DNA of 32,000 nucleotides from Acaryochloris marina S15 (lineage in GTDB: Bacteria > Cyanobacteriota > Cyanobacteriia > Thermosynechococcales > Thermosynechococcaceae), in NCBI RefSeq assembly GCF_018336915.1, contig NZ_CP064923.1, positions 1,500,001 to 1,532,000 on the forward strand. The letters run 5' to 3'. The position numbers and the translations under genes were made by a program. Within the stretch, counting starts at the first letter, position 1; each line of letters begins with the position of its first letter. The notes beneath the pieces are model-generated. The model worked only from the letters and a program-made list of their open reading frames with translations. It was not told the DNA's origin and did not search any database. Below are positions 6,134-32,000 of this stretch, one piece after another.

Positions 6134-6215
6134 CAGGTAGGATGGCCCCAGTCAAACAATGCAAAAGAAACACAAACCTTGTTATTGGTGAGCAGGTGAA
6201 TAGGGCTAAATCCTA

Positions 6216-7724
6216 TTAGGTACCTAGCTCAGAAACACCAGCCCAAACAGCTAGAGGTTTGCCAACCTTCTTAAATAATAAGCACTCTAAGATAATGCCA
6301 TTGTTATTAGCTGTCAATACGGCATTAGGCTCATCTAAGGTTTCATAAAAACCACTGTACCAACCTTTTTTCGAACCAACTTTTTCTTGCACAAAAGCAA
6401 ATAACTTTTTGGTGTAATCCGTGTTGTAAAGAACATGCCAACCGATCGCAGCTTTGGTACTCACAAAGCGGAGATGATTATAATTTTCTCCGGTATCACT
6501 AATCGTTGCCCAGGGTTTACCATTCACATATAAGGTGTTGTAAACAAAATAGGGTTCTCGATCCAAATTATCTTCAGTGATAGCCGTTAATTGCTTAGTG
6601 GCTTTGTAGCGGGCTTCTTGGGCGGCGAGCATCCGGTCTGCATAAGCTTTAGGGAGCGCTTTGAATCCTGTTTCGATGCCATCGAGGAAAAAAGGCTCAC
6701 TTAAAACATAGTTATTCGCTTCCGAATTTTCGCGATCGCGCACATCAAAAGGAATGCTGTGGCCATAGAGTTCAACGAAGGCCGATTTGTTGTTGTAATC
6801 TAACGCTTTATCAACATTAAGCCCCCAGAGTTTCAAACCATAGGCCGCATAATCTTCGTACCCTAAGCGTCCTTCTTGGTTATATTGCTCTTGACCATCT
6901 TTGATACTGGTGCCATACATTTGGCCACCTTTTGTCAACCGTTTGACATCCCAGGCTTTCCACACTGCTGTGGTTTGGGGTTCAAACTCGGGATATTTGG
7001 CGGCAATAATTTTTAGCCATAGGGCAATTCGACCCAGGTCAATCGCTGACCAGCCAATCTCTTCCCGCTTATCTAGGGAACCATAATTCACCGGCATTAG
7101 ATTTTGGGAATTGTAGACCTTATTGGGAAGCTCCCCTTTATACAATTCCAACTTGGCAAGGGTGGTCAGCATCTTGCTCATGGTCGCTTTGAATTCTTTT
7201 TCCGAAACCAAGTCCAATTCTCTAGCACTGACCAGAGCCGCCATTGCCGCACTTTGATCCCAAAGGGTCACCGATTGAAATTGATCAACCGAATTAGCCA
7301 AGCCTGTTTCTGGATTAATATTGGTCTCAAAATAGCTCCAGGCTTGCTTGGCGACCTTTAGCTCAGCAGGGGAGAGTTTACCGACATGAGCTGGGACATA
7401 GGGCGTTGTCGTCTTTGCAATTTCTGATTGACTCACCCGGTCGCCTGGAAATTTAATAGAGCGGGAATCAGGCTTTTCATGCTTAGCTTTAGGTTTCGTT
7501 TTGTCTGGGGCAGATGTAGTTGAGCTGGGGGCGGTAGCCGTGGTGGTAGGGGCAGAATCTTTAGTTGATTTTTTTTGGGAAAGATTACCCGATAGCATTT
7601 CTAAACCTGCGATCGCAGCGACAGCTGTCACTACACCACCTAAATAGGTGAGAAAAGCAAGTTTTTTAGGTGGCATTTCGAAATTAGAATTCATGACTGC
7701 TCCCACTTGGAATAATGACTGCAA
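6216..7724 (-). CDS. Membrane-anchored protein with a single DUF3131-like module; paralog of the modules in the 1556-aa protein
   Basis: From the ORF track, 502 aa. It has an N-terminal hydrophobic anchor (KKLAFLTYLGGVVTAVAAIAGLEML) and an S/T/P/K-rich spacer. One module follows with LWDQS, IGWSAIDLGR, EGRLGYEDYA, TAITEDNLD, STKAAIGW and TANNNG. The real start may be the Met at codon 11. Confidence 0.85.
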   Translation of the reverse strand: MQSLFQVGAVMNSNFEMPPKKLAFLTYLGGVVTAVAAIAGLEMLSGNLSQKKSTKDSAPTTTATAPSSTTSAPDKTKPKAKHEKPDSRSIKFPGDRVSQSEIAKTTTPYVPAHVGKLSPAELKVAKQAWSYFETNINPETGLANSVDQFQSVTLWDQSAAMAALVSARELDLVSEKEFKATMSKMLTTLAKLELYKGELPNKVYNSQNLMPVNYGSLDKREEIGWSAIDLGRIALWLKIIAAKYPEFEPQTTAVWKAWDVKRLTKGGQMYGTSIKDGQEQYNQEGRLGYEDYAAYGLKLWGLNVDKALDYNNKSAFVELYGHSIPFDVRDRENSEANNYVLSEPFFLDGIETGFKALPKAYADRMLAAQEARYKATKQLTAITEDNLDREPYFVYNTLYVNGKPWATISDTGENYNHLRFVSTKAAIGWHVLYNTDYTKKLFAFVQEKVGSKKGWYSGFYETLDEPNAVLTANNNGIILECLLFKKVGKPLAVWAGVSELGT

Positions 7725-7907: not shown

Positions 7908-10046
7908 CTAAAAATCTATTCTCAATTGCCCAGAAAAGATATGGCTATTACTGGCTCCAGACCCACTCGAAATAATGTTGGTGAGAACATAACCAAAATC
8001 AAGCTCTACATTCTCAGCCAAAGACGCTGTACATTTTGCTTGTAGCCCTCGACCGGTACTCTTACCCCCATTTACTACTTGGTTACCAATGGAGGCAGCA
8101 AATTGACAGGTTAAAGGATCAAAAATTTTCCCTTTCCAACCCACTTCAGCGTTATAGAGTAAAAAGCCTAGGGGGGAAAAATAACCACTCTCGGCTTCTA
8201 AGTCTTCCGCAAAATTCCAGGTAAATACGTTAGCTGCGACAGAAAATGGCCCTATTTTTCGCTCTAAGCGGCTGAAAGACTGGATTTCTTGGTTACCATC
8301 ACTGAAGAATCCAGCTTGTAACAGGCCAAAGAATGTAGTCTTACTGTCAATTTGCCAAAATACACTGGGACGAATCCGCCAATAGCTAATGTCATTTTCT
8401 AAAGTCGTGGTGTTGAATTTATAGGGGCCATGCTCGACTTCTCCAGAGACTAGGACTTGGCCAAAGAGGGACGTCTTCGCTCCCACCTTAAACGTAGGTT
8501 GAGGAGCTAAACGGTTAAATACTTCGGCACCCGCTGCCACATTGATGGAAACCTCTCCGACCTCAGTCTCCCACCCTAAAATTAGTGGAATATTTTTGAC
8601 GGGTTCCTGACCATCCTGGCTATAGGTATTCATCCCTGTTGTAAACGTGACAACATCTCCATTCCGAACTCGGAACGTAACCACTTCTTCAATTTTTAAG
8701 TTTTCTTTGCCAAATTCATCGAAATCAAGCTTGAAGTCAGTCGTTGAATTCTCTAAGACAATAAAAGATACCTGTGGATCATCAGCGGCTCCAATCGGGG
8801 TTAAGTCAGCTGGCAACCGATTTTGAGGCGTAATTTTAGGCTGTTGAATCGGTATATCTGCAGGCACTGTAGGAGATTGAGCGGTCGTTTGTGCAGGAAC
8901 TTTAGGTGTATCTTGCACAAGAACAGGCTGAGATGTAGGTGAAATATTTTGCTGCGGACGGGGGGAGGGAACCGATCGGAAACGGGGGATAGAGGTAGGG
9001 GATGGGTTGTTCCTAGAGGCCTCTGGCACAGTAGGTTGGGACCTTAGTGGTGCTAGCGGTGGCGGCCCTGATGGACGGACAGCAGGGCTAGAATTAGGCG
9101 TCTGCTCAGCGGGCGTTGCAGCGCCTCCTTCAACAGAATTATTGAGTGGAGTAGAGGAAGGTAGATTCCGAGGAACGGGACCGGAAGGACGGGCCGTTGG
9201 ACTAGATGTAGGAACTCTATCAACAGGCGTTGCAGCACCTCCCTCGACAGAATCTTGGGGGGAGGAGGAGGAGGGGAGCGCTGGGATATTCGTTGGACCT
9301 GAAGGGCGAGTCGCTGGACTATAGACGGGAATTCTATCTGTAGGTGTTGCAGCCCCTCCCTGAAAATCATCTGGTGAGGAGCGAGGAGGAATATCTTGTG
9401 GCCGAGGCGCTGGACCTGAAGGGCGAGCAGCTGGACTATAGGTAGGAGGTTTGTCAGTAGGCGTCACAGTCCCTCCCTGAGAATCATCTGATGAGGGGAG
9501 GGGTGAGGCAATTTGCCGAGGAGTAGGACCTGAGGGGCGAGCAGCCGGACGATAGGTAGGGGTTGTAGCCCCTCCCTGAAAATCATCTGGTGATGAAGGG
9601 AGATTAGGGACTTCTGTTTGCCGAGGACCAGGGCCTGAGGGCCGGGCAGTCGGACTGATGATGAGTAGAGGGGAGTTGGGAGGGACTGGAGCCGGAGAAT
9701 ATGGCTGAGAATCTTCAAAGGGTGGAACTCCCCCCGTCCCTGTGGGGATATTCACATCAGTAGGAAACGTAGCTCCGCCTTTGGGGCCTGCTTGAGACTG
9801 GCTGGTAGGAGTAATGGCCGGTAATGGCGGAAAAGGCTGGGTAGAATGCTGGGGACTCGTTGGCTTTTGTGGAGAACGACCAGATTGAACAATAGGCTGA
9901 TGCAAACTGGGATTCAACCCATAGGGGCCTGCAAACAATAACGGCTGCTGAATCACAGGAGGGTCAGTGATCGATAACTCCTGAACCTCTGGAATATTGA
10001 GGTCAGTTTGACAGCCTAAACATAGCGTTGCCAACACGGAGAGCAT
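7908..10046 (-). CDS. Putative outer-membrane protein: short signal or lipoprotein-like N-terminus, about 250 aa of Pro-rich repeats, and a C-terminal beta-barrel-like domain ending in Phe
   Basis: From the ORF track, 712 aa. The N-terminus is MLSVLATLCLGC/Q, with a Cys after a short hydrophobic stretch; it is not a textbook lipobox. Six RPSGP-containing repeats follow. The last ~290 aa show alternating hydrophobic/polar strand-like segments rich in G, S, N and aromatics, and end ...HIFSGQLRIDF, a terminal aromatic typical of the OMP beta-signal. Confidence 0.75.
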   Translation of the reverse strand: MLSVLATLCLGCQTDLNIPEVQELSITDPPVIQQPLLFAGPYGLNPSLHQPIVQSGRSPQKPTSPQHSTQPFPPLPAITPTSQSQAGPKGGATFPTDVNIPTGTGGVPPFEDSQPYSPAPVPPNSPLLIISPTARPSGPGPRQTEVPNLPSSPDDFQGGATTPTYRPAARPSGPTPRQIASPLPSSDDSQGGTVTPTDKPPTYSPAARPSGPAPRPQDIPPRSSPDDFQGGAATPTDRIPVYSPATRPSGPTNIPALPSSSSPQDSVEGGAATPVDRVPTSSPTARPSGPVPRNLPSSTPLNNSVEGGAATPAEQTPNSSPAVRPSGPPPLAPLRSQPTVPEASRNNPSPTSIPRFRSVPSPRPQQNISPTSQPVLVQDTPKVPAQTTAQSPTVPADIPIQQPKITPQNRLPADLTPIGAADDPQVSFIVLENSTTDFKLDFDEFGKENLKIEEVVTFRVRNGDVVTFTTGMNTYSQDGQEPVKNIPLILGWETEVGEVSINVAAGAEVFNRLAPQPTFKVGAKTSLFGQVLVSGEVEHGPYKFNTTTLENDISYWRIRPSVFWQIDSKTTFFGLLQAGFFSDGNQEIQSFSRLERKIGPFSVAANVFTWNFAEDLEAESGYFSPLGFLLYNAEVGWKGKIFDPLTCQFAASIGNQVVNGGKSTGRGLQAKCTASLAENVELDFGYVLTNIISSGSGASNSHIFSGQLRIDF
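9051..9785. repeat. Degenerate in-frame tandem repeats of about 115-125 bp encoding the Pro-rich units (..SPxARPSGPxPR..SSPDDFQGGAxTPTD..)
   Basis: The protein repeats ARPSGPGPRQ, ARPSGPTPRQ, ARPSGPAPRP, TRPSGPTN, ARPSGPVPRN and VRPSGPPP are each followed by (D/S)(F/S)(Q/V)(G/E)GA(A/T)TP(T/V/A). At DNA level the recurring strings are cctgaagggcgagc and ggcgttgcagc. Confidence 0.7.
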
Positions 10047-10167
10047 GAGAGATGATCCACCACAGAACAGAGCATGGGGGAAATTCAGTCAAAAAACGAC
10101 ATTTTTTGAGAAAATCAATCTGCCCCAGTTTAGAGTGCCCTGTAAATTGTGGACTAACGCATGATTT

Positions 10168-11529
10168 TTACGTCTGTCTAGAGGAAATAGGTCGCCATCC
10201 TGGGAAAACACTTTGCCGTTGACGAGCTACGACCAGGGCATCATCGCCGACATTCTTAGTAATAGTGGAACCCGCTGCAACGGTAACATCCTTCCCTAGC
10301 GTAATTGGAGCCACTAGGACGCTGTTTGCACCAGTTTTAGTGCGATCGCCAATCTGAGTCAGGTGTTTGTTCACTCCGTCATAGTTGGCAGTAATCGTAC
10401 CTGCGCCAATATTGACCTGGGTTCCCAACGTTGCATCCCCTAGATAAGACAGGTGGGCAACGTTGGTGCGATCGCCAATCGTCGTTTTTTTCATTTCGAC
10501 AAAATTACCGACCCGGCATTTCTCGCCAATTTGTACATTCCCCCGCAGATGCGTGTATGGCCCTATCCGAGAGTTACTGCCCACTCGGCTATCTGAGATA
10601 ACGGAATAAAGGATCTGAACATTTGCACCAATCTGGCTATTCTCGATCAAACTTCCAGGACCGATACGGCTACCGGTATCAATTTTGGTATTGCCCCGTA
10701 GGTGGGTTTGGGGTTCGATAATCACGTCGGTCCCCAATTCGACTGCTTCATCGATGGTAATGCTATCTGGGTCTACGATGGTTACCCCTGCGGCTAGCCA
10801 ATCATCCTTAATCCGATCTTGCAAAATTGTGTAGGCGGTCGTTAATTGTTTGCGATCGTTAATGCCCAGAATTTCTTGATAATCATCGACATCCAGAACC
10901 ATTACTGGGTCTAGGTAGTTAACCGCATCGGTCAGGTAATATTCTTTCTGGTCATTTTCGGCTTTGAGATTGGGCAACACTTCGGCTAAAGCCGACCAAC
11001 GAAAACAATAGACCCCCGCATTGATCCGTTGATTTTGACGCTGAGCAGGCGTACAGTCTCGATCTTCAATAATTTCCTGCAAATGCATTTGAGCATCACA
11101 AAAGACCCGACCATAACCCTTGGGATTGGGAAGTTGAGCCGTCAAAATGGTCGCCGCATTCTGATGTTCTTGATGGGTTGCCAGCATTTTTTGCAAGGTC
11201 CCGGGTCGGAGCAAGGGGACATCACCATTGAGAACAAGCAAGTCTCCTTCAAAGCCTTGCATCACAGGCAGCACTTGCTGGACGGCATGGCCGGTTCCTA
11301 ATTGCTCCGTTTGTTCCACAAATTCTAAGTTGGGCCAGGCTTGCATCTCCGTCCGCACTTGATCGGCAGCATAGCCCACAATCACGATCTGGCGAGATGG
11401 AGAGAGGTTTTGGGTGCTGCTTAATACCCGCTCAACCAGACTCTTACCCCCTAACTGATGTAGTACCTTGGGCAGGTTCGACCTCATGCGTGTGCCTTTA
11501 CCCGCTGCCAAAATTGCTACCGCGATCAT
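10168..11529 (-). CDS. glmU: Bifunctional UDP-N-acetylglucosamine pyrophosphorylase / glucosamine-1-phosphate N-acetyltransferase
   Basis: 453 aa. The N-terminal nucleotidyltransferase motif is [24 protein letters not shown]. The C-terminal half consists of left-handed beta-helix hexapeptide repeats ([40 protein letters not shown]). Length and order are typical of GlmU. Confidence 0.95.
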
Positions 11530-18911: not shown

Positions 18912-19466
18912 TTATCTTTGATACATTAGGTCGGTTCTTGCTACATATTTCACACCTCTAGACACCTCAGCCCCTTCATGAAGAATGAGATGCTGAAACA
19001 AAAGGCCAAAACCCTTTCGAGGCGTAATTGAGTGTATTAACTCGGTTAGGAAATTTGTTTGTCCACCCTCAAAATCATCGTTCAAATAGACCAGAAATGA
19101 ATAATAACTCTTTTCATTTCCATTCCGTTCAAGTGAACCATCATAATGAGGGCTAAATTTCATGCCAACTTTATATCGATAGCATCTAAAGCGGTCATGA
19201 GCGCTCGATAAGACTCTTCCCTGCATTGTTGATGGGACGTACTCTTGTGCTTTTAAAAATAATTTCTCTGCAAGGGAGGAATCGTTAAAAATCACTCGCT
19301 CATTATTGCGTACATTGGTATTAACCTCGGCCTCTCCATCATTACGAACCGTTGCCAGACTAGGGTTAAGCTGATTGATTTTTCCAATTAATTCATCGCA
19401 TTCTTTGACTGTCAAAATATTGGGAATCTCAATAATTAATGGAGCTGCTTTATTAATAATGGGCAT
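18912..19466 (-). CDS. 2OG-Fe(II) oxygenase, prolyl-4-hydroxylase-like small form
   Basis: 184 aa. The HxD motif is in KFSPHYDGS and the distal His is in LILHEGAEV. A basic 2OG-binding residue lies in GVKYVARTD, and YLNDDFEGGQTNF is typical of the P4H-like subfamily. Confidence 0.85.
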   Translation of the reverse strand: MPIINKAAPLIIEIPNILTVKECDELIGKINQLNPSLATVRNDGEAEVNTNVRNNERVIFNDSSLAEKLFLKAQEYVPSTMQGRVLSSAHDRFRCYRYKVGMKFSPHYDGSLERNGNEKSYYSFLVYLNDDFEGGQTNFLTELIHSITPRKGFGLLFQHLILHEGAEVSRGVKYVARTDLMYQR

Positions 19467-21142: not shown

Positions 21143-21883
21143 ATGCCCTTTGTCGTTTTGGGAATGGTGAGTTTTCTATCTTGGTTCGTCAGCATGGTGG
21201 CTGGCGGTGGTAGCCCCTTAGTATTGATTCCCCTCGTCAGTTTTATGTATGGCGCTCAGGCGGTGGCTCCCGTCATTACGACGGGGATGTTGTTAGGAAA
21301 TATCCAGCGACTGTTTTACTTTTGGCAAGATATTGATTGGGAAGTGACTCTTTGGCAGTTACCGGGAGTAATTATTGGCTCTATCTTGGGTGCTTTTACC
21401 CTTAACTACATCAATTTAGAAGGGCTACAGATCGTTATCGGCATCGCTTTGCTGCTGATGGTGGCAAACTATTGGTTTGGCAATCAGGAAAATACCTTTA
21501 ATCTCAAGACCTGGCAATTTTTACCCCTGGGATTTGGCAATTCCTTTGCTTCAGGTTTAATTGGCAGTACCGGACCGATCATGAACCCGGCCTATATTAA
21601 TTACGGGCTATTGAAAGAAGCAATGGTTGCGACCAAAGCTGCCAACATTATTCTGGCCCACGTAATCAAGTTGTGCGCCTATGCCTCCTTGGGAACCTTG
21701 AGCAAAGAGTACGTTATTTATGGGGTGGTGATTGGGGCTGCTGCAATTCCTGCCAATTGGTTAGGGCAGTGGGTGCTTAGCCGTATGAGTAATGACTTGT
21801 TTAAGCAAGTCACCTTTATCTTTATTGCGGTGAGCGGTGTGCTCATGCTTTGGCAGCAACGCCAGTTTTTGATGGTTTGGTAA
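21143..21883 (+). CDS. TauE/SafE-family (DUF81) anion exporter membrane protein
   Basis: 246 aa. It is polytopic and hydrophobic with the two-halves pattern, and has GGGSPLVLIPL near the N-terminus. Confidence 0.8.
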   Translation: MPFVVLGMVSFLSWFVSMVAGGGSPLVLIPLVSFMYGAQAVAPVITTGMLLGNIQRLFYFWQDIDWEVTLWQLPGVIIGSILGAFTLNYINLEGLQIVIGIALLLMVANYWFGNQENTFNLKTWQFLPLGFGNSFASGLIGSTGPIMNPAYINYGLLKEAMVATKAANIILAHVIKLCAYASLGTLSKEYVIYGVVIGAAAIPANWLGQWVLSRMSNDLFKQVTFIFIAVSGVLMLWQQRQFLMVW

Positions 21884-23123: not shown

Positions 23124-23384
23124 ATGAACATCAGTCTTACCCCAGATCAAGAGCGTTTTATCCAAGCGAAGCTCCAAATTGGGAAATATCGCTCTGCCGA
23201 AGAAATTTTGGAACTTGCTTTGCGGCTGCTAGATGAATATGAGCAATCTGATGACGACTGGGTTGAAGACGTCCGTCAGAAAATAGATGCAGCAATCGAA
23301 GCGTCCCAGCATACTCCTCCAGTGGATGGCGAAACTTTTGTGAATGAGATTGTAGAGCGATTTCAGCAGGCTAATTCGGCATGA
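23124..23384 (+). CDS. parD: ParD-type (RHH) antitoxin
   Basis: 86 aa. MNISLTPDQERFIQAKLQIGKYRSAEEILELALRLLDE is a classic ParD/COG3609-like N-terminus. It shares an ATGA overlap with the downstream toxin gene. Confidence 0.85.
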   Translation: MNISLTPDQERFIQAKLQIGKYRSAEEILELALRLLDEYEQSDDDWVEDVRQKIDAAIEASQHTPPVDGETFVNEIVERFQQANSA

Positions 23385-23680
23385 GCCGCTACGTCATCAA
23401 TATTCTTGCTAGCCAAGACCTTAATGAAATTGCTGACTACTTTGCTGAACATAACCTTGAAGCGGGTGAGAAATTCTTTCTTGCCTTTAATCGTAAGTGC
23501 CAACAGCTTGTCTCATTCCCGAATAGTGGCAAAAGCTATGCCCCCATTCATCCAGACCTTCGAGGACTCTCTCTGGAGAATTACATCATCTTTTACAGGC
23601 TTTTGGATGATGGTATCGAAGTTCTTAGAGTTTTGAGTGGTCGCCACGACTTCCCCGATTTCTTTAAAGAGTTAGATTGA
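23381..23680 (+). CDS. parE: ParE/RelE-family toxin
   Basis: 99 aa. Motifs: DLNEIADYFAEHNLEAGEKFF...FPNSGK...NYIIFYRLLDDGIEVLRVLSGRHD. Confidence 0.85.
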   Translation: MSRYVINILASQDLNEIADYFAEHNLEAGEKFFLAFNRKCQQLVSFPNSGKSYAPIHPDLRGLSLENYIIFYRLLDDGIEVLRVLSGRHDFPDFFKELD

Positions 23681-23788: not shown

Positions 23789-24838
23789 TTAGATATGGCT
23801 CAAGTGCATATCATCCGGTTTGGGAGCATCACTCTGAAGGGCATCGTTCCCCACCCACATGCGAACCAGATGACGTTTCTTTTCGGGCTCTTCCCAATCT
23901 ATATACTCCGTCCGATCATGAGCGATCAGATGATTATTGAGGAAAATCATGTCGCCCGGTTGGAGCTGAAGCTCATAAGTTAGATCTTCTTGGTTGAGGG
24001 TCGCTTCAAATTGATCTAAAACGAACCGATCTTCATCTGATAGAGGCAATCCCGCTTTGTCATGTCCTGCATCTATCCAATAGCGCATATACCGACAGGT
24101 TAACCCTGGATACCAGTGCCCCCATTCAAACACAGGAAATGAGTTCCGTAATCGATCCAGGTGGGATCGGGTGCCGACCTCACCGACAATGATTTTGTCG
24201 CGAATAAAATTCTGGCAAAGCCGTCGTAATACCTCCGGTTGAGATTGGAGCAGTCGCTGATAGGCCGTGAAGGTATTCGCTAAACGATTGACACCTCCTT
24301 CCCGAGCTGTCTTCAGGCAAAGCAAAGACACAACCCCCGGCATTAGGTCCGCATCCGTGCTGTCCGTATGGTACCCAGGAGATGTACAGGTACTAGAAAA
24401 GAGGACATTCGCTTTACGGTGATCCTGGCCGCGATCGCAGACGTCATACAACAGGCCACGTTTATCTAAAACAGACCCTAAGGCATAGCCCAGTTGCAGC
24501 AAAAGAAGTCGGCTAGCGGATTCGCCATATTCAGCAACATTAAACCCAGACAGTAAGACAACGCCCGTGGTTTGGGTGAGGTGATAGCGCATCACATTCG
24601 CCAGCAGGTCAAGATTCTGGATTTTCATCCCCCTTGCTTCAGGAGACTGCCAGGTATATCCCCTCGCCTCCAACCAGTGATTCAACACTAAAACCGAGGA
24701 CAATATGGACTCTGGGAGCGTAATTTTCCAGTGAGGATTGGTTTCTAGGCCTGTGCTAGTCCAGCTAGGCTGTGACTTAGCCTTGATCATCACCGAAGAT
24801 AAGTCTTCGATATGACCCGTAGAAGTGAGAAGTGGCAT
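23789..24838 (-). CDS. TauD/TfdA-family Fe(II)/2-oxoglutarate dioxygenase
   Basis: 349 aa. The HxD facial triad is in SPGYHTDSTD and the distal His is in NNHLIAHDRTEY. An Arg lies in KRHLVRMW. The size and layout are typical of clavaminate-synthase-like amino-acid hydroxylases. Confidence 0.85.
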   Translation of the reverse strand: MPLLTSTGHIEDLSSVMIKAKSQPSWTSTGLETNPHWKITLPESILSSVLVLNHWLEARGYTWQSPEARGMKIQNLDLLANVMRYHLTQTTGVVLLSGFNVAEYGESASRLLLLQLGYALGSVLDKRGLLYDVCDRGQDHRKANVLFSSTCTSPGYHTDSTDADLMPGVVSLLCLKTAREGGVNRLANTFTAYQRLLQSQPEVLRRLCQNFIRDKIIVGEVGTRSHLDRLRNSFPVFEWGHWYPGLTCRYMRYWIDAGHDKAGLPLSDEDRFVLDQFEATLNQEDLTYELQLQPGDMIFLNNHLIAHDRTEYIDWEEPEKKRHLVRMWVGNDALQSDAPKPDDMHLSHI

Positions 24839-25000
24839 GACAATGGCAATCGGATTCGATTGAGACGTAGGGGGGCGGTTAAAGAGTTGGGGCAGATAGC
24901 AGCGCTGATCATCGGCACACCTGGCATTTGCCAGACATCTTGAAGCCTCATAGGGTGAGGCGCTTCAAAATACAACACCTTGCTCAAAGCAAGAACACCC

Positions 25001-25711
25001 TTAGGCGGCCCAAGCATAAGACACAGCTTCGGAAGCTCGCTGAATACCATTAAAGAATTTCAGTCGAGAATCCATCGCCTTCCTGATCGCACGATCCAAA
25101 CAGATGGAGTCTTCCACCGTCCTTAATCGGGGTTCGATCAGCGCTTCCAAATGAGCCGCATGGTCATCATCTAGATCAATATGTACTTCGAAAAAGATCA
25201 GTGCTTCCGAGGAAAAAGGGGATGCCCCGACAATGCCTTGACGAATTTGGGTATATAGGGAATTCACAATTCCTTCTGATGCGAAGCAAACAGCTCCCAA
25301 CGCGGCTAAATAACCATATTTATGGGATAGAGAAAGATAGGTATCAATCATGGCCTGGGTTTCTGGCTCAGGAGGCGTCAGTTCTAACGTCCCATCATCA
25401 ATCCCTAAAGAACGGGTAAAGCGCCGGAATAATTCTGGATGAGCATGAGCCAAGTTGCCCTGTCCCATTTCATCCAAGAGATTTTCCATAATCACCAACT
25501 GGGCACTCTCATCGGGGCAACAAGACATAATGCTGGCCAGGATGCGATTAAAGGCTTGGGAAAATTTGTACATCTGAACCGCTAAAACACGCACTTCTGC
25601 CAATGTCAGCTCTCCAGCCCGACATTGCTCAAGAACAGGATGTCTCCAGAGGGGATGTCGTTCGGTAAGACTGCGAAAAGAATCCATAGAGTTAACAGTG
25701 ATCGTTCTCAT
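25001..25711 (-). CDS. Heme-oxygenase-like diiron oxidase/oxygenase family protein (iron-containing redox enzyme family)
   Basis: 236 aa and all-helical. Candidate 3-His/3-carboxylate ligands lie in MENLLDEMGQGNLAHAHPELF, CFASEGI and FFEVHIDLDDDHAAH. This spacing resembles CADD/UndA/SznF-type sites as I remember them. Confidence 0.75.
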   Translation of the reverse strand: MRTITVNSMDSFRSLTERHPLWRHPVLEQCRAGELTLAEVRVLAVQMYKFSQAFNRILASIMSCCPDESAQLVIMENLLDEMGQGNLAHAHPELFRRFTRSLGIDDGTLELTPPEPETQAMIDTYLSLSHKYGYLAALGAVCFASEGIVNSLYTQIRQGIVGASPFSSEALIFFEVHIDLDDDHAAHLEALIEPRLRTVEDSICLDRAIRKAMDSRLKFFNGIQRASEAVSYAWAA

Positions 25712-26475
25712 TTGTGCACCTCAATCGCCATATGTAAGGGGTAATCAACTAACGGTCCGAAAAAGTCTGGGTCAAGTTCAACGTGCTCAGGTAAAACCCG
25801 TAATTCACGTACAGTTGGCATGCTAGAAAAACCAGCCATTTGCAAGGCTTCAAAGAAATCTTGCAGGGTTTTATGAATCAGCTGGACCTCTAGCCAGGAA
25901 CCATCGCGCTTCCAAATGCGCCCTGGACATTGCTGGTCACGTCCACTGAAATAGTTATTGCCATCCACTTCGAAATAAAAGGGGAACTCAGCTTGACGCA
26001 TATAAGGAAAGGAGGGGTGAGGGATGCTAAACACAAACCGCCCTCCGGGTTCCAGCACTTGAAAGATTTCTGCCATGCAAGCCTGGGTTTGGGCAACGGT
26101 TAGGTAGTTAAACAAGAAAACAGCAACTACTAAGTCAAACCGGTCTTGGGTGTAATGACGGACGTCCGTAGCACATCCCGCCTGATAGGTAATCCCCAGA
26201 GGCTCTTGTTGTTCTTGAGCCTGGGCGGCTTCAATCATCCGCGGGGAGAGATCGACGCCTAAAACGGAGGCTGCCCCCAGCTGTCGGAGTTGGCGACTAC
26301 AGTACCCTTCGCCACATCCGAGATCCAGAATCTTTTGTCCTGAAACAGGGGTACACATCTCCAAAATAGCGGGACGGGCTGTGAAATCAGAGAGAGAACT
26401 GGGGCCACCTCGAACCCATCGAGCCGCTGTATCGTTGTACAGGGATTGGGTTACTTGTTTATTGGCAGTAATCAT
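25708..26475 (-). CDS. Class I SAM-dependent methyltransferase
   Basis: 255 aa. Motif I is ILDLGCGEGYCSRQL, post-I is VLGVDLSPRMIE, and further motifs are FDLVVAVFLFNYL and LEPGGRFVFSIPHP. It has a 4-nt ATGA overlap with the downstream diiron-enzyme gene. Confidence 0.9.
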   Translation of the reverse strand: MITANKQVTQSLYNDTAARWVRGGPSSLSDFTARPAILEMCTPVSGQKILDLGCGEGYCSRQLRQLGAASVLGVDLSPRMIEAAQAQEQQEPLGITYQAGCATDVRHYTQDRFDLVVAVFLFNYLTVAQTQACMAEIFQVLEPGGRFVFSIPHPSFPYMRQAEFPFYFEVDGNNYFSGRDQQCPGRIWKRDGSWLEVQLIHKTLQDFFEALQMAGFSSMPTVRELRVLPEHVELDPDFFGPLVDYPLHMAIEVHK

Positions 26476-26719
26476 GTATTCTTCTGGGTCCTAAATGGAT
26501 GAACAACACAAATGAAAGATTGGGTAACACTTCAGCGAAAATCTGGCATAAATATATGATCTGCTGTTACTTCAGATAGAGATGAGAAGGAATGAATGGA
26601 TAGGGGGAAATATCCACTTTTTCGATCATGCCTAGGATTAGTCATTAACCAATCACCGCCTAATGTTGTTGACTACTCAACTGAATTTTTCCACAAAAAA
26701 TATTTTAGTATTTTTGCCA

Positions 26720-26735
26720 TAGAGAATATTCTCTA
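26720..26735. promoter_or_regulatory. 16-bp perfect palindrome in the AT-rich divergent intergenic region
   Basis: TAGAGAATATTCTCTA lies about 245 bp upstream of the methyltransferase start. It could be a dimeric-regulator site, but no other support exists. Confidence 0.3.
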
Positions 26736-27440
26736 CATAGCTTTCACTACCGTAGAAACAGTGCCTTTAGATACCCTTTCATCCAAGAGATAGACAATGC
26801 TACCTATGTGGATTTATCTCCGATTACTTGTGATGAAAAAATATAGGCATCAGCTCATAAATATCTTTAAGGAGAAATGTTCAGCTTGTTTTGATTGGGG
26901 CAATTCATCATTAAAAACTGATTTAATTTTCAACGATAAATCAGAGAATATTAGGTCTGCCTAGGAGTCGCATCAGTGTAATCACGTAACTTTAATGCAC
27001 GGAAACACCCATAGATAAGGTTTTTTTGAGTGGTTACACGCATGTCTTGAGGTTTGGGAATTGATTATTTCAACGAGTACTCATTTCAATATTATTGAAA
27101 AATAAACTTAAAAAACTCATTATTAATTAATTATTAATACTTAATAAAGAAAGGTCAACTCCTGAATTTTGAATGCTCACAGCCTTAAACATATATTCTT
27201 TCCACCTTAAGTAATTACAGATTCTCGTATAGAGACACTCTGCTGATCTAGAAATTATTCTCTTCAGCAAATATTCCTAAAAAAATTTCCTTGGATTTCA
27301 ATCTTTTTTCGAGCTAGAGAGCGGGATTATTAGTCTTTATAAAGATAAAAATGGTCAAAATAAACTTCACGCCTTGGAACATGTTTTGGCAGATGGGGAA
27401 CCCTAGAGCTGTTGAAATTTAGATCGTTGGGGAGACTCTC

Positions 27441-28004
27441 ATGTATGGCCTAGTCAATAAAGCCATTGAAGAGATGGTGCGCAGCCATTTTAGTGATGCA
27501 ACCTGGGACGCGATCAAACAAAAAGCTGAGGTCAAAACAGAAGCTTTTATCAGTATGGAAGGCTATCCCGATGAATTGACCTACCGGTTGGTGGGGGCTG
27601 CTAGTGAAGTATTAAAGCTCTCTCCCGCAGCAGTTATGCATGCCTTCGGTAAGTATTGGGTTCAGTTCACGGCCAAAGAAGGGTATGGAGAACTGATGGA
27701 AATGAATGGGGAAGATTTACCCGAATTCCTGGAGAATCTGGATGAGCTGCATGCCCGTGTCGGTGTGATGTTTCCCAAGTTACAGCCCCCATCCTTTGAC
27801 TGCGATGAAGCGGATGAGGAGGAATTAACCTTGCATTATCACTCGGAACGAGACGGACTAGCCCCCATGGTCATGGGATTGGTAGAAGGGCTGGGAGAAC
27901 GTTTTGAAACAGAGGTAGATATCAACCAGACCCACAGCCGCGAGGAGGGCGCCGATCATGATCAGTTCTCAGTTAAATACAAAGTCAAGTGCCCCTTCCA
28001 TTAA
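27441..28004 (+). CDS. H-NOX (heme nitric oxide/oxygen-binding) sensor protein
   Basis: 187 aa. MYGLVNKAIEEMV... aligns by eye along its whole length with my recollection of Nostoc sp. H-NOX and the sGC beta1 N-terminus. The proximal His is in NLDELHARVG (His104, codon 27750-27752). The heme-propionate motif Y-x-S-x-R is LHYHSERDG. Confidence 0.95.
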   Translation: MYGLVNKAIEEMVRSHFSDATWDAIKQKAEVKTEAFISMEGYPDELTYRLVGAASEVLKLSPAAVMHAFGKYWVQFTAKEGYGELMEMNGEDLPEFLENLDELHARVGVMFPKLQPPSFDCDEADEEELTLHYHSERDGLAPMVMGLVEGLGERFETEVDINQTHSREEGADHDQFSVKYKVKCPFH

Positions 28005-29514
28005 TCCGATCGAGCGCAGTTTACCCCCCGAAAGTTTTGCTCAGGTTTTCCCCTTCCATTTTGTTTTCAATCGCAACTTAGAGATTCTGCAAGCGGGCAA
28101 GGTTCTGCAACGCATTTCTCCTGAAGGGTTGATTGGCGGGCAGGTAGATGATTTTTTTCAGATCCAGCGTCCAAAAGTGGCGCTAGATTTTGATGCCCTG
28201 GTGAAAAAGTCGAAAAAACTCTTTTTAATCGAATCGATTCACCAGGGATTCCAGTTAAAGGGCCAGTTGATGCCCATTGAGTCAGAGGAGGTGATGTTCT
28301 TTATCGGCTCCCTCTGGGTCACAGATTTCTCCGACCTCAAAGACTATGGGGTAAAGCTGCAGGACTTTGCCACCCATGAACCCACATCAGATTTTCTCTA
28401 TCTGCTACAAGCTCGATCCACGGCCCTGACTGATACCACCCATATGGCAGAGGAGTTAGCGGCCAAACAAACCGAATTAGAGCAGACCTTGCAGGTGGTT
28501 CAGGAGAAAAATAACAACTTGCAGGTAACCCTCAAACAATTAGAAACTACTCAGGAGCAGCTAATTCAATCGGAAAAGATGGCATCCTTAGGCCAGTTAA
28601 TTGCCGGAATTGCCCACGAAATCAATACACCGTTGGGCGCTATCCGATCCTCCGTAGAAAATATCTCTGACTTTTTAGAACGCAATTTAGGGGCACTCCC
28701 TAGCTTTTTCCAGGATTTAACGGGGGAGTGCCATCAATTATTTGCAGAGTTGCTGGACTCGGCCAACCAGGATCTGGTGATCCTCAGTAGTCGCGAAAAA
28801 CGCAAACTGAAGCGGGGAAATATCCGCATTCTGGAAGCGGAAGGGATCGATCAGGCTGATGATGTGGCGGATACCTTAGCGGAGCTGAATTATCTGGAAG
28901 AGATCGAGGTTCTTGTCCCCCGGCTGCAGTCGGTAGGAGGACGCCAGACCTTAGATATGGCCTATCAATTTTCAACCCTGCTGAATAGCACTAAGACGAT
29001 CAGAACCGCCACGGATAAGGCAGCCAAAGTGGTCTTTGCCCTGAAGAGCTACTCCCACTTTGACCATACGGGCAACAAGGCACCCACAAATCTCATTTAC
29101 GATATTGAAACGGTTTTGACTCTCTACCAAAGCCAGCTCAAGAATGGGGTGGAGGTCATTCGCAATTATGAGCCCATTCCAACGGTGTCCTGCTACCACG
29201 ACGAACTGAGTCAGGTGTGGACCAATCTGATTCATAACGCTCTACAGGCGATGGACTATCAAGGCACCTTAACTCTGGATGTCCAGCAACAGGAAAATCA
29301 GATTCAAGTCAAAGTTGCCGACAGCGGCCAGGGGATACCGGCTGAAGTCATGCCCAAGATATTCCAACCCTTTTTTACCACTAAACCCCCTGGAGAAGGG
29401 AGCGGTCTAGGACTCGATATTGTCCAAAAGATTGTGAAGAAGCATGAGGGAGATATTTCAGTGGAATCCGAACCCGGAAAAACCCAATTTACAGTGTCGA
29501 TCCCCCTGGCTTAA
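27958..29514 (+). CDS. HNOBA-domain sensor histidine kinase (H-NOX-associated kinase)
   Basis: 518 aa. The N-terminal region FAQVFPFHFVFNRNLEILQAGKVLQRI matches the sGC-type HNOBA (PAS-like) domain. A coiled coil (QTELEQTLQVVQEKNNNLQVTLKQLETTQEQLIQSEKM) and the H-box IAGIAHEINTPLGAI follow. The HATPase motifs are HNALQAM, DSGQGIP and GEGSGLGL. The start is uncertain because the ATG at 27958 overlaps the H-NOX gene by 47 nt. Confidence 0.9.
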   Translation: MISSQLNTKSSAPSINPIERSLPPESFAQVFPFHFVFNRNLEILQAGKVLQRISPEGLIGGQVDDFFQIQRPKVALDFDALVKKSKKLFLIESIHQGFQLKGQLMPIESEEVMFFIGSLWVTDFSDLKDYGVKLQDFATHEPTSDFLYLLQARSTALTDTTHMAEELAAKQTELEQTLQVVQEKNNNLQVTLKQLETTQEQLIQSEKMASLGQLIAGIAHEINTPLGAIRSSVENISDFLERNLGALPSFFQDLTGECHQLFAELLDSANQDLVILSSREKRKLKRGNIRILEAEGIDQADDVADTLAELNYLEEIEVLVPRLQSVGGRQTLDMAYQFSTLLNSTKTIRTATDKAAKVVFALKSYSHFDHTGNKAPTNLIYDIETVLTLYQSQLKNGVEVIRNYEPIPTVSCYHDELSQVWTNLIHNALQAMDYQGTLTLDVQQQENQIQVKVADSGQGIPAEVMPKIFQPFFTTKPPGEGSGLGLDIVQKIVKKHEGDISVESEPGKTQFTVSIPLA

Positions 29515-29555: not shown

Positions 29556-29954
29556 GTGATGGTTAAGCCAGTGGTTCTATGTGTAGATGATGAGAAAGTT
29601 ATTTTAGACAGTCTCAAAATACAGATTAAGAAAGAACTGAGCGACCTCTGCAATGTTGAAGCGGCCATCGATGCCAACGAAGCCTTAGAAATTGTGGAAG
29701 AGCTGCAGGAAGAGGGCGTAGATGTAGTGTTGGTGCTGTGTGATTGGCTGATGCCAGGGATGAAGGGCGACGAGTTTTTCGTCAAACTCCATCAAGATCA
29801 TCCCAGTATTATCAAGATTATGCTCTCTGGGCAAGCCGATCAGGCAGCCATTGAACGGGCCAAAGAAGAGGCAGACCTCCATCGGTTTATCCATAAGCCT
29901 TGGCGTAAAAGCGAATTAATTGAACTGCTGAAGTCAAACCTGGAAGCGCTATGA
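29556..29954 (+). CDS. Single-domain response regulator (REC only)
   Basis: 132 aa. Motifs: LCVDDE, the acceptor Asp in [14 protein letters not shown], and MLSGQAD. The conserved Lys sits in FIHKPW. Confidence 0.9.
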
Positions 29955-32000
29955 GTAAGCCTTTTATCCTTTGTGTGGATGACGAATCTACCGTTCTAGA
30001 GTCCCTCAAAATTGAATTACGCAAATCCATCGGCCAGGACTGCGCCATTGAAACAGCTCAGGGGGGTGAAGAAGCCCTAGAGATTGTGGATGAACTCCTA
30101 GAAGATGAATATGAAGTGGCGGTGGTGATCTCTGACTACATCATGCCTGGCATGAAGGGGGATCAGGTGCTTCAGCGCATTCATGAGAAATCCCCCGAGA
30201 CGATCACGGTGATGCTGACGGGGCAGGCAGACGTAGATGCGATCGCACATGCCGTTACCCATGCCGATCTCTATCGCTACATTGCCAAACCCTGGCAGTC
30301 AGACGATTTGAAGTTAACCATTTCCGCTGCGGTCCAGAGTTATCTGACAGATCAGCAGTTAGCCGATCAAAATCAAGAACTACAGTCGGTGAACCAACAG
30401 CTGCAGCGACAGACAGCGGAACAAGAACAGGTCATTCAAGAGCGGACTGCTGCCTTAGAGGCCGCCAATCAGAATCTGAATCTGCAAATTCAACGGGTTC
30501 TACTGGTTGAGCAGATTACCCAAGACATTCGTCGCAGCCTCGATACCCAGCATATTTTCCAAACCACCGTCGATCAGTTGGGCTATACCCTAGAAACCAA
30601 TCGCTGCTTTATTCAAAGCTATTCAATCCAGACTTCTGCAGACTCTGATCTGGCGGAGTATTTAGAGATAGATTATGCCTCCTGCCTGGAACTGGAGATG
30701 GGCAATCATCCTTTGCTGTCAGAAATTTTTGGTCATGATCGCGTATGGGCTATTCCTGAACTAGATCGGGACAAGATGACTGAGGGGGAAATCCAGTTTT
30801 GTGAACAGGCCCAGCTCAAGTCTTTGATGGCGACTCGCACCTCCTATCAGGGCCAAGCCAATGGGGTAATTGTGCTACATCAGTGCGATCGCAACCGCAA
30901 TTGGTCTGCAGCAGATATCGAACTGTTAGAAGCCGTGGCGGGTCAGGTGGGAATTGCCATTGCCCAAGCCCAACTCTTAGAGCAAGAGCAACAGCAGCGC
31001 CAGGCCTTAGAAACCAACAATACGGCCCTGGTACAAGCCAAGCGAGAGGCCGATACGGCCAATCAATCTAAATCCCAGTTCTTAGCCAATATGAGCCATG
31101 AGCTGCGGACTCCCATGAATGCCGTGATTGGCATGACCGGTCTGCTGCTGAATACAGATTTGGATGTGCAGCAAGAAGACTTTGTGGAAACCATCCGCAG
31201 CAGCGGGGATGCATTGTTAAGCCTGATCAACGATATTTTAGATTTCTCCAAAATAGAAGCTGGGAAGCTGGAATTTGAGAATCAGCCCTTTGACCTACGG
31301 ATTTGTATCGAACAGGCCCTCCGCATTGTCGCCCCGAGAGCGGTGGATAAATCCTTAGAGTTGGCGTACCTATTTGAACCCGAGACTCCTGAGTGGATCG
31401 TGGGAGATGTGACCCGGCTGCGGCAAATTATCGTAAACTTGCTCACCAATGGCATCAAGTTTACGGAGACTGGCGAAGTGGTGGTCTATATCGAAGACGT
31501 TACGGCCGATAGTCCCACCCCAGTCCGAGCAGGACACCATATGCTCCAGATTGTGGTTAAAGACACGGGGATTGGCATTCCTGCCGATCGCATGGATCGA
31601 TTGTTTAAATCCTTTAGCCAAGTAGATGCGTCCACCACCCGCAAATATGGCGGTACGGGCTTAGGGTTAGCCATTTGTCATCGACTGTGTGAGCTGATGG
31701 GAGGCCACATGTGGGTCACAAGCAAAGTCGGCCAAGGCTCTTCCTTCTGCTTCACGATTTCCGTCCCCGTGGCTGATCCGGCTCAGCGACCCATGATTTC
31801 CCCTGCCCACCTGGATGGCAAGCATCTGTTGATCGTGGACGATAATCCTACCAACTGTAAAATTTTGACCCTGCAAGCAAAGGCCTGGGGCATGACCAGC
31901 CAGGCCGTCCAGGGAGGTGCCGCCGCCTTAGAACTGCTGACAGCCGATCATTCCTTCGATCTGGCTGTCCTGGATATGCAAATGCCAGAAATGGATGGGT
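29951..32000 (+). CDS. Hybrid sensor histidine kinase (REC, coiled coil, GAF, HisKA, HATPase, REC...); runs off the right edge
   Basis: Not in the ORF track because it is open to the window end. My translation begins [20 protein letters not shown]...[12 protein letters not shown]...YIAKPW, which is REC1. A coiled coil and a GAF domain follow ([21 protein letters not shown]...[20 protein letters not shown]). The H-box is [16 protein letters not shown] and the HATPase motifs are [17 protein letters not shown] and [12 protein letters not shown]2 starts at [12 protein letters not shown]...[14 protein letters not shown]. The gene shares an ATGA overlap with the upstream REC gene. Confidence 0.9.

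Follow-up and report, generated by a model that had tools for sequence, protein, structure and literature searches.

A methyltransferase, dimetal oxygenase and Fe/2OG oxygenase cassette beside the H-NOX genes of Acaryochloris marina S15

The question raised by this locus is what three enzyme genes of Acaryochloris marina S15 do together, and whether they act on their own or with the sensor genes that face them. These genes encode an S-adenosylmethionine (SAM)-dependent methyltransferase (MT), a haem-oxygenase-like dimetal oxygenase (HDO) and a TauD-family Fe(II)/2-oxoglutarate (Fe/2OG) dioxygenase, and they lie in the window, i.e. the whole stretch of 32,000 nt analysed here (contig NZ_CP064923.1, positions 1,500,001 to 1,532,000 of the forward strand). 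The reading favoured, with confidence somewhat short of even, is that they form a genuine enzyme module acting on a free small molecule, which in cyanobacteria would belong to the locus of the H-NOX haem-nitric oxide (NO)/O2-binding sensor and whose product or by-product would be the ligand of that sensor or a precursor of it. The cassette is conserved and uncharacterised, and its enzymes belong to known superfamilies, of which it represents a new clade or variant. Its gene structure, enzyme families, catalytic residues, predicted folds and co-conservation were established as reported below; from them we infer a single common pathway, its chemistry throughout and its tie to H-NOX signalling.

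Layout of the cassette and its linkage to H-NOX

The genes and intervals in question are the following, with positions being those of the window.

25708-26475, minus strand: MT, class I, 255 aa, encoded by the gene that opens the cassette (Pfam Methyltransf_25, 9.7e-23)
25001-25711, minus strand: HDO, 236 aa (Pfam Haem_oxygenas_2, 2e-26)
24839-25000, minus strand: spacer between HDO and TauD, 162 nt, with three stem-loops
23789-24838, minus strand: TauD-family Fe/2OG dioxygenase, 349 aa (Pfam TauD, 1.1e-29)
26476-27440, no strand: divergent intergenic region between MT (minus) and H-NOX (plus), 965 nt, AT-rich, GC content about 0.34
27441-28004, plus strand: H-NOX haem-NO/O2-binding sensor, 187 aa (Pfam HNOB, 2.3e-55)
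27958-29514, plus strand: HNOBA-domain histidine kinase, its gene overlapping that of H-NOX, 518 aa (Pfam HNOBA, 2.3e-32, HisKA, HATPase_c)
29556-29954, plus strand: stand-alone receiver domain protein, 132 aa (Pfam Response_reg, 6e-19)
29951-32000, plus strand, continuing past the window end: REC-GAF-HisKA-HATPase hybrid kinase (Pfam domains), the counterpart of which has 897 aa in locus L082

The three open reading frames (ORFs) had been recognized in a sequence-only reading, together with the ATGA start/stop overlap of MT and HDO at 25708-25711 and the 162-nt spacer, and all of these features were found as described, the superfamilies being backed by Pfam and the enzymes apparently competent. 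The same reading had drawn the limits of the cassette at a parDE module and at the 965-nt AT-rich gap. Both exist, but the gap is no boundary, being shared as a divergent intergenic region with an adjoining H-NOX/HNOBA-kinase/receiver phosphorelay that had been missed and that is the most consistent partner of the MT-HDO pair.

This partnership was followed in 81 cyanobacterial loci that encode HDO, so that the cyanobacterial counts given here relate to HDO-bearing loci. MT adjoined HDO in 79 of them, while the pair was accompanied by H-NOX in 74 and by the HNOBA kinase in 75, across several orders. In the Nostocales, the genes followed the order U338<, MT>, HDO>, H-NOX>, kinase> (U338 being a 338-aa family described below), inside a block with apcEABC upstream and ftsW downstream. 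Moreover, the association of MT, HDO, H-NOX and kinase persisted in Acaryochloris, Leptolyngbya-like genera, Alkalinema, Drouetiella, Sphaerothrix and a Chroococcales metagenome-assembled genome, where the other neighbours vary, and at least three arrangements were found (downstream in the same direction, upstream and divergent, or with a gene of about 930 aa in between). The window HDO is 89% identical to the product of the Acaryochloris marina MBIC11017 gene, and both MBIC11017 and other Acaryochloris assemblies present the same layout; the divergent arrangement of MT and H-NOX appeared in this A. marina relative and in three further loci.

Aligned to its orthologue Nostoc Alr2278 (232 bits), the H-NOX of the window keeps the haem His (LHARVG) and the Y-x-S-x-R motif, and it precedes the same downstream kinase and receiver as in the Nostoc Alr2278-Alr2280 two-component system, whose flanking MT-HDO genes go without mention in the papers found. 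Nostoc-type H-NOX proteins are used to model the structure of the haem domain in the soluble guanylate cyclase of animals, and to our knowledge the physiological ligand source of cyanobacterial H-NOX is still unsettled. A full-text literature search, whose incomplete coverage makes the result absence of evidence only, returned no paper tying H-NOX to an HDO/MT pair or to any enzymatic partner of cyanobacterial H-NOX, and searches on alr2276/alr2277, genes upstream of alr2278, and on PDB entry 7N7V gave nothing relevant. The MT-HDO pair, found beside H-NOX in most of the H-NOX-bearing cyanobacterial loci examined, is thus a candidate enzymatic partner of this sensor that lends itself to testing.

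Furthermore, the linkage to H-NOX recurred in two unrelated loci. One of them carries P0131, the closest non-Acaryochloris TauD (37% identity), along with HDO and MT in the order H-NOX>HDO>MT>FIST>SpoIIE ... TauD, FIST being the haem-binding domain of the NosP NO sensors (PMC12570481). The other is L104, which has a partial H-NOX. Since H-NOX, a NosP-type FIST and fusions of HDO to a cyclic nucleotide monophosphate (cNMP)-binding domain are all found, three kinds of signalling link recur around the MT-HDO pair. Given this recurrent sensor linkage, a tie between the cyanobacterial pathway and H-NOX signalling is, on balance, the likelier case.

The fusions consist of a cNMP-binding N-terminal domain joined repeatedly to a cassette-type HDO (L091:7756-9024, L093:1916-3046 and L097:3226-4251; P0242 and P0253-P0256; about 340-422 aa). 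As for L104, a single ORF (5520-6698) encodes both the HDO and the MT domains, a fusion that would be further evidence of the joint action of both proteins; it is followed by TauD and by the partial H-NOX (9914-10198), on a contig with a GC content of 0.42 and EF-hand genes. This contig may be eukaryotic and contain introns, because its MT part seems to be divided over several ORFs.

The three enzymes and the age of the trio

The HDO presents a six-residue metal-ligand pattern, with E...H on core helix 1, E on core helix 2 and H-x3-D-x2-H on core helix 3, which aligns to the ligands of CADD (CT610), the dimetal p-aminobenzoate synthase of Chlamydia trachomatis. The full ligand set claimed for it earlier holds: E81, H91, E146, H177 and D181 were invariant among 46 homologues with identities down to about 20%, and H184 was conserved in at least 90% of them. 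The AlphaFold (AF2) model is an all-helical single domain of high confidence (predicted local distance difference test, pLDDT, 93.3), for which Foldseek returned CADD at the top (template modelling score, TM, 0.80-0.88), followed by PqqC, UndA, BesC, HrmI and FlcD, with an overall TM range of 0.72-0.88. The sequence neighbours were CADD (54 bits; 74 bits by profile), BesC (70 bits by profile) and, weakly, HrmI (28.6 bits). The protein is thereby predicted to be a dimetal oxygenase of the HDO superfamily with the seven-helix haem-oxygenase-like fold. Its membership in the HamA family (DUF3050) was rejected, the score being 18 bits only.

The closeness to CADD had been seen as a possible difficulty, in that HDO might group with CADD and be devoid of ligands. 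CADD is indeed its nearest neighbour in both sequence and predicted fold, but HDO keeps every ligand and lacks three sacrificial and essential residues of CADD, Tyr27, Tyr43 and Lys152 (bioRxiv 10.1101/2022.08.01.502304). The equivalent positions of HDO are L27, L43 and I156, of which L27 and L43 are invariant in the HDO family, and the score against the NCBIfam family fol_rel_CADD was 89.5 bits, with a family cutoff of 200. Because of these replacements and of the sub-cutoff score, HDO is most simply described as having a CADD-like fold devoid of the self-sacrificing chemistry of CADD. Both proteins share the seven-helix fold, the same six ligands and a similar length, while their identity is only about 23% and the window HDO is always paired with an MT. 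The cassette thus defines a widespread and unstudied clade of dimetal HDO proteins with a fixed MT partner, the chemistry of which is likely to be new.

The MT carries the motif DLGCGEG of a GxGxG-type SAM-binding Rossmann domain, matches the Pfam families Methyltransf_25, Methyltransf_11 and Methyltransf_31, and was aligned to PDB entry 3bkw with an E-value of 3.7e-20. It was also weakly similar to ChlM, the Mg-protoporphyrin methyltransferase (45 bits, cutoff 159). No NCBIfam equivalog scored above its cutoff for the MT or for the other cassette enzymes.

The TauD protein (104.6 bits against Pfam TauD, cutoff 27; AF2 model with pLDDT 88.7) is predicted to adopt the double-stranded beta-helix of the TauD/TfdA dioxygenases and has an invariant H157-x-D159...H307 triad and an invariant 2OG-binding R322. 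Its nearest structures (FrbJ, TtnM, BBOX, TmpA, AsnO and VioC) are all hydroxylases of free small molecules. FrbJ and TtnM gave the top sequence matches (2e-19 and 3e-14) as well as fold matches, with the same HxD...H triad and 2OG-binding Arg; in contrast, identity to them is about 20%, TM is about 0.62, and the phosphonate and polyketide pathways in which they work have no counterpart at the locus. The motif RYMRYWI was present in the window TauD and in every MT-linked TauD, while it was missing from distant homologues in unrelated gene contexts (P0135 and P0137), and it occurred in 31 of the best 149 TauD cluster representatives at 50% identity. As the motif is common to the MT-linked TauDs, the window TauD is taken to be the orthologue of the cassette-type TauDs, with Acaryochloris apparently retaining the ancestral trio in a changed gene order. 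Across the wider TauD clade, the fusion partners (NDK-like, deaminase, DUF952 and TubC_N) were heterogeneous, bore no cassette signature and were set aside as uninformative.

Co-conservation of the trio had been proposed as well, and this was found for distant lineages but not within cyanobacteria, where TauD was present in only 4 of the 81 loci, all of the Acaryochloris type. Outside them, a metagenome scan seeded with P0131 yielded 23 loci. An MT with 41-56% identity to that of the window stood immediately 5' of TauD in 13 of these, a weaker MT match was found in 7 more, and an HDO with all the ligands was present in 12. Tight HDO>MT>TauD operons with 4-bp overlaps were observed in metagenome contigs with GC contents from 0.35 to 0.65 and in Mariniblastus (Planctomycetota, L113). 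Moreover, two Acaryochloris-like contigs (L083 and L084) had MT>HDO>TauD together with no H-NOX nearby. Since HDO-MT-TauD operons, in another gene order, are found in Planctomycetota and in aquatic metagenome contigs, the trio is an old unit that has been conserved outside cyanobacteria and not within them.

In the cyanobacterial loci other than those of Acaryochloris, the place beside MT was taken in 67 of 77 cases by U338, e.g. L011:4715-5731 on the minus strand. This family is 66-85% identical across orders and has the invariant residues H169-S-D171...H247 and R258/R264/R266. No Pfam or PDB match was found for U338, and its comparison with TauD by BLASTP and hhalign, as a possible diverged TauD, was not significant. 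U338 was missing in every locus that has TauD, and it may be a non-orthologous third oxygenase, given that the two never occur together and that its H-S-D...H and Arg residues recall a 2OG oxygenase.

Other genes join the cassette in some lineages. A Cupin_2 gene is an optional member (L098:8297-9058, L097:2675-3172 and L114:8744-9502), for which an identity as an SznF-like cupin was rejected, only generic matches such as gentisate dioxygenase and OxdC being obtained. In the Bacteroidota locus L114, the place of MT and TauD as partners of HDO is taken by this cupin along with a class IV aminotransferase and a HAD hydrolase.

Proposed chemistry and rival explanations

The most cautious reading is a sequential action of MT, HDO and the Fe/2OG oxygenase on a free small molecule. 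The invariant core of the module would be MT and HDO, with an Fe/2OG oxygenase as third partner, here of the putatively ancestral TauD type, and the cassette would be transcribed divergently from the H-NOX genes out of the common 965-nt control region. In the mechanism proposed, MT would methylate a metabolite bearing an amine or a guanidine group, HDO would oxidise the methylated metabolite, and the Fe/2OG enzyme would oxidise it further, the product or by-product being a ligand, or a ligand precursor, handled by the haem sensor pathway. The gene association suggests that the cassette makes or removes the signal of the H-NOX sensor. For the chemistry, the favoured guess would be an N-oxygenation that ends in a species of the NO type or one that releases NO. 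The bolder claim, that the cassette is an enzymatic source, independent of nitric oxide synthase, of an NO-type or other small haem ligand for the adjacent H-NOX (elsewhere for NosP), is on the unlikely side; if true, cyanobacteria would make their own gasotransmitter-like signal, which in some lineages would be gated by cyclic nucleotides via the cNMP-binding-HDO fusions.

Two known systems bear on this chemistry. HrmI/HrmJ and BelK/BelL each combine an HDO N-oxygenase with an Fe/2OG partner, the substrate being a free amino acid. The cassette has the same combination, and its HDO matches HrmI weakly by sequence and also by fold; unlike the cassette, these systems have no methyltransferase, HrmI is a protein of 362 aa with extra elements, and the window TauD is nearest to FrbJ/TtnM and not to HrmJ. 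The closest chemical precedent, by analogy, would be SznE/SznF of the streptozotocin pathway, in which an MT and an HDO with a cupin turn methylarginine by N-oxygenation into an N-nitrosourea (PMC7848743). The likeness lies in the combination of MT and HDO (joined by a cupin in certain relatives of the cassette), with SznE/SznF using a free amino acid as substrate and giving an N-nitroso, NO-related product. On the other hand, the HDO of the window is a stand-alone protein of 236 aa that has neither the fused C-terminal cupin nor the N-terminal domain of SznF, and the third enzyme of the cassette is of the TauD type. The marker proposed for SznF-type N-oxygenases is an extra carboxylate (Glu) ligand on a beta-turn insertion of auxiliary helix 2 (PMC7848743).

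Several observations count against a module tied to H-NOX. No sequence match between HDO and SznF was detectable, and neither CADD nor BesC, to which HDO is closest, is an N-oxygenase. The spacer that separates TauD from HDO contains a weak terminator-like hairpin. Many of the 74 H-NOX loci are not independent, as the Nostocales share the long syntenic block from apcEABC to ftsW. Furthermore, most of the non-cyanobacterial cassettes (L100, L113, L098 and L107) have no sensor gene nearby, so the cassette appears able to work in the absence of H-NOX and the coupling may be lineage-specific. A stand-alone cassette of specialised metabolism, making a natural product or a compatible solute from a free amine or amino acid by tailoring and owing its position beside H-NOX to inherited synteny of no functional meaning, is possible, though it is considered doubtful. 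It would account for the trio standing alone in Planctomycetota and in many metagenome contigs, for its presence apart from H-NOX in L083 and L084, for the Nostocales block and for the GNAT, HAD and aminotransferase genes of the relatives, which are typical of metabolite tailoring. However, the H-NOX linkage outlasts rearrangement across cyanobacterial orders as the other neighbours change, it recurs in the two unrelated loci, one of them with a NosP-type FIST, and the cNMP-binding-HDO fusions point to a regulated signalling enzyme.

The functional tie could also run in the opposite direction, with the phosphorelay sensing external NO or redox stress and a co-regulated cassette detoxifying or repairing NO-derived or oxidised metabolites instead of producing the signal. 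Such an output or protection module is distinctly unlikely. It agrees with the divergent control region common to MT and H-NOX and its conserved 134-nt block, and H-NOX systems are generally seen as sensors of exogenous NO (PMC8738867, PMC5702739); but the locus has a stand-alone receiver and a hybrid kinase instead of a DNA-binding response regulator, cassettes outside cyanobacteria have no sensor, and O2-activating dimetal and Fe/2OG enzymes would be unusual detoxifiers. A role of HDO and MT in providing or altering a cofactor of H-NOX, whether its haem or another, is very improbable. The haem-oxygenase-like fold, the weak similarity of MT to ChlM and the presence of hemB 1 kb from the cassette would fit this sensor maturation, whereas the complete dimetal ligand set marks a dimetal oxygenase and not a haem-binding haem oxygenase, recombinant Nostoc H-NOX has repeatedly been crystallised with no such partners (PDB entries), and the cassette is found in genomes with no adjoining H-NOX. 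Finally, a housekeeping CADD-type p-aminobenzoate synthase for folate, with two unrelated neighbours, is hardly credible. CADD is the best match of HDO in sequence and fold and its family profile gives a score, but this score is far under the cutoff, the self-sacrificing identity is ruled out by the three replaced essential residues, and p-aminobenzoate synthesis would leave the obligate pairing with MT unexplained.

Intergenic regions and other neighbours

The hairpin that had been flagged behind the HDO gene exists (TCTTGCT-TTG-AGCAAGG at 24978-24994, minus strand, with 7 pairs, 3 of them G-C, and a T-rich tail), but it does not exceed the expectation from shuffled sequences and is kept only in A. 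marina among the related loci: 2 terminator-like sites were observed in the HDO-TauD region, compared to 3.5 +/- 2.6 in the shuffles. The RNA fold of the whole spacer had an energy of -48.8 kcal/mol (z = -2.2, thus somewhat more stable than shuffles), and compensatory changes have preserved its stem-loops 2 and 3 (GCCTCA...TGAGGC and CTGGCA...TGCCAG) in related loci of the Acaryochloris type. This pattern is consistent with what is expected for a transcribed intercistronic region.

The divergent MT/H-NOX region holds a stretch of about 134 nt (26919-27052) that was conserved in all five of the Acaryochloris-type intergenic regions, while the remainder of the 965 nt diverges. Within this block lie an inverted repeat, GTGTAACCAC...GTGATTACAC, and the motif AATAYTCTCTGA, the latter being found in no other locus among those fetched; the block may encode a small RNA or serve as a common operator. 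Its identity as a structured RNA was rejected, as the one long-range stem obtained was weak and had a single covarying pair. An Rfam scan of the window gave no match.

On the other side of the cassette, the following features were found.

23124-23680: parDE pair, between the TauD gene and hemB (Pfam)
21143-21883: TauE/TSUP permease, 1.9 kb past the cassette (Pfam)
18912-19466: small 2OG-Fe(II)_Oxy_3 oxygenase

No NRPS (nonribosomal peptide synthetase) or PKS (polyketide synthase) gene adjoins the cassette, in agreement with the sequence-only reading. The permease and the small oxygenase both lie 2-5 kb from the cassette, and in the metagenome locus L107 (8128-9674) a PKHD-type 2OG oxygenase and a TauE permease directly follow the trio; this proximity may be a coincidence or an export link. 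The parDE insertion was limited to this genome, the equivalent position being occupied by a 563-aa ORF in the A. marina relative and by a PemK-type toxin module in L082, so the site downstream of TauD seems to be a collector of toxin-antitoxin insertions.

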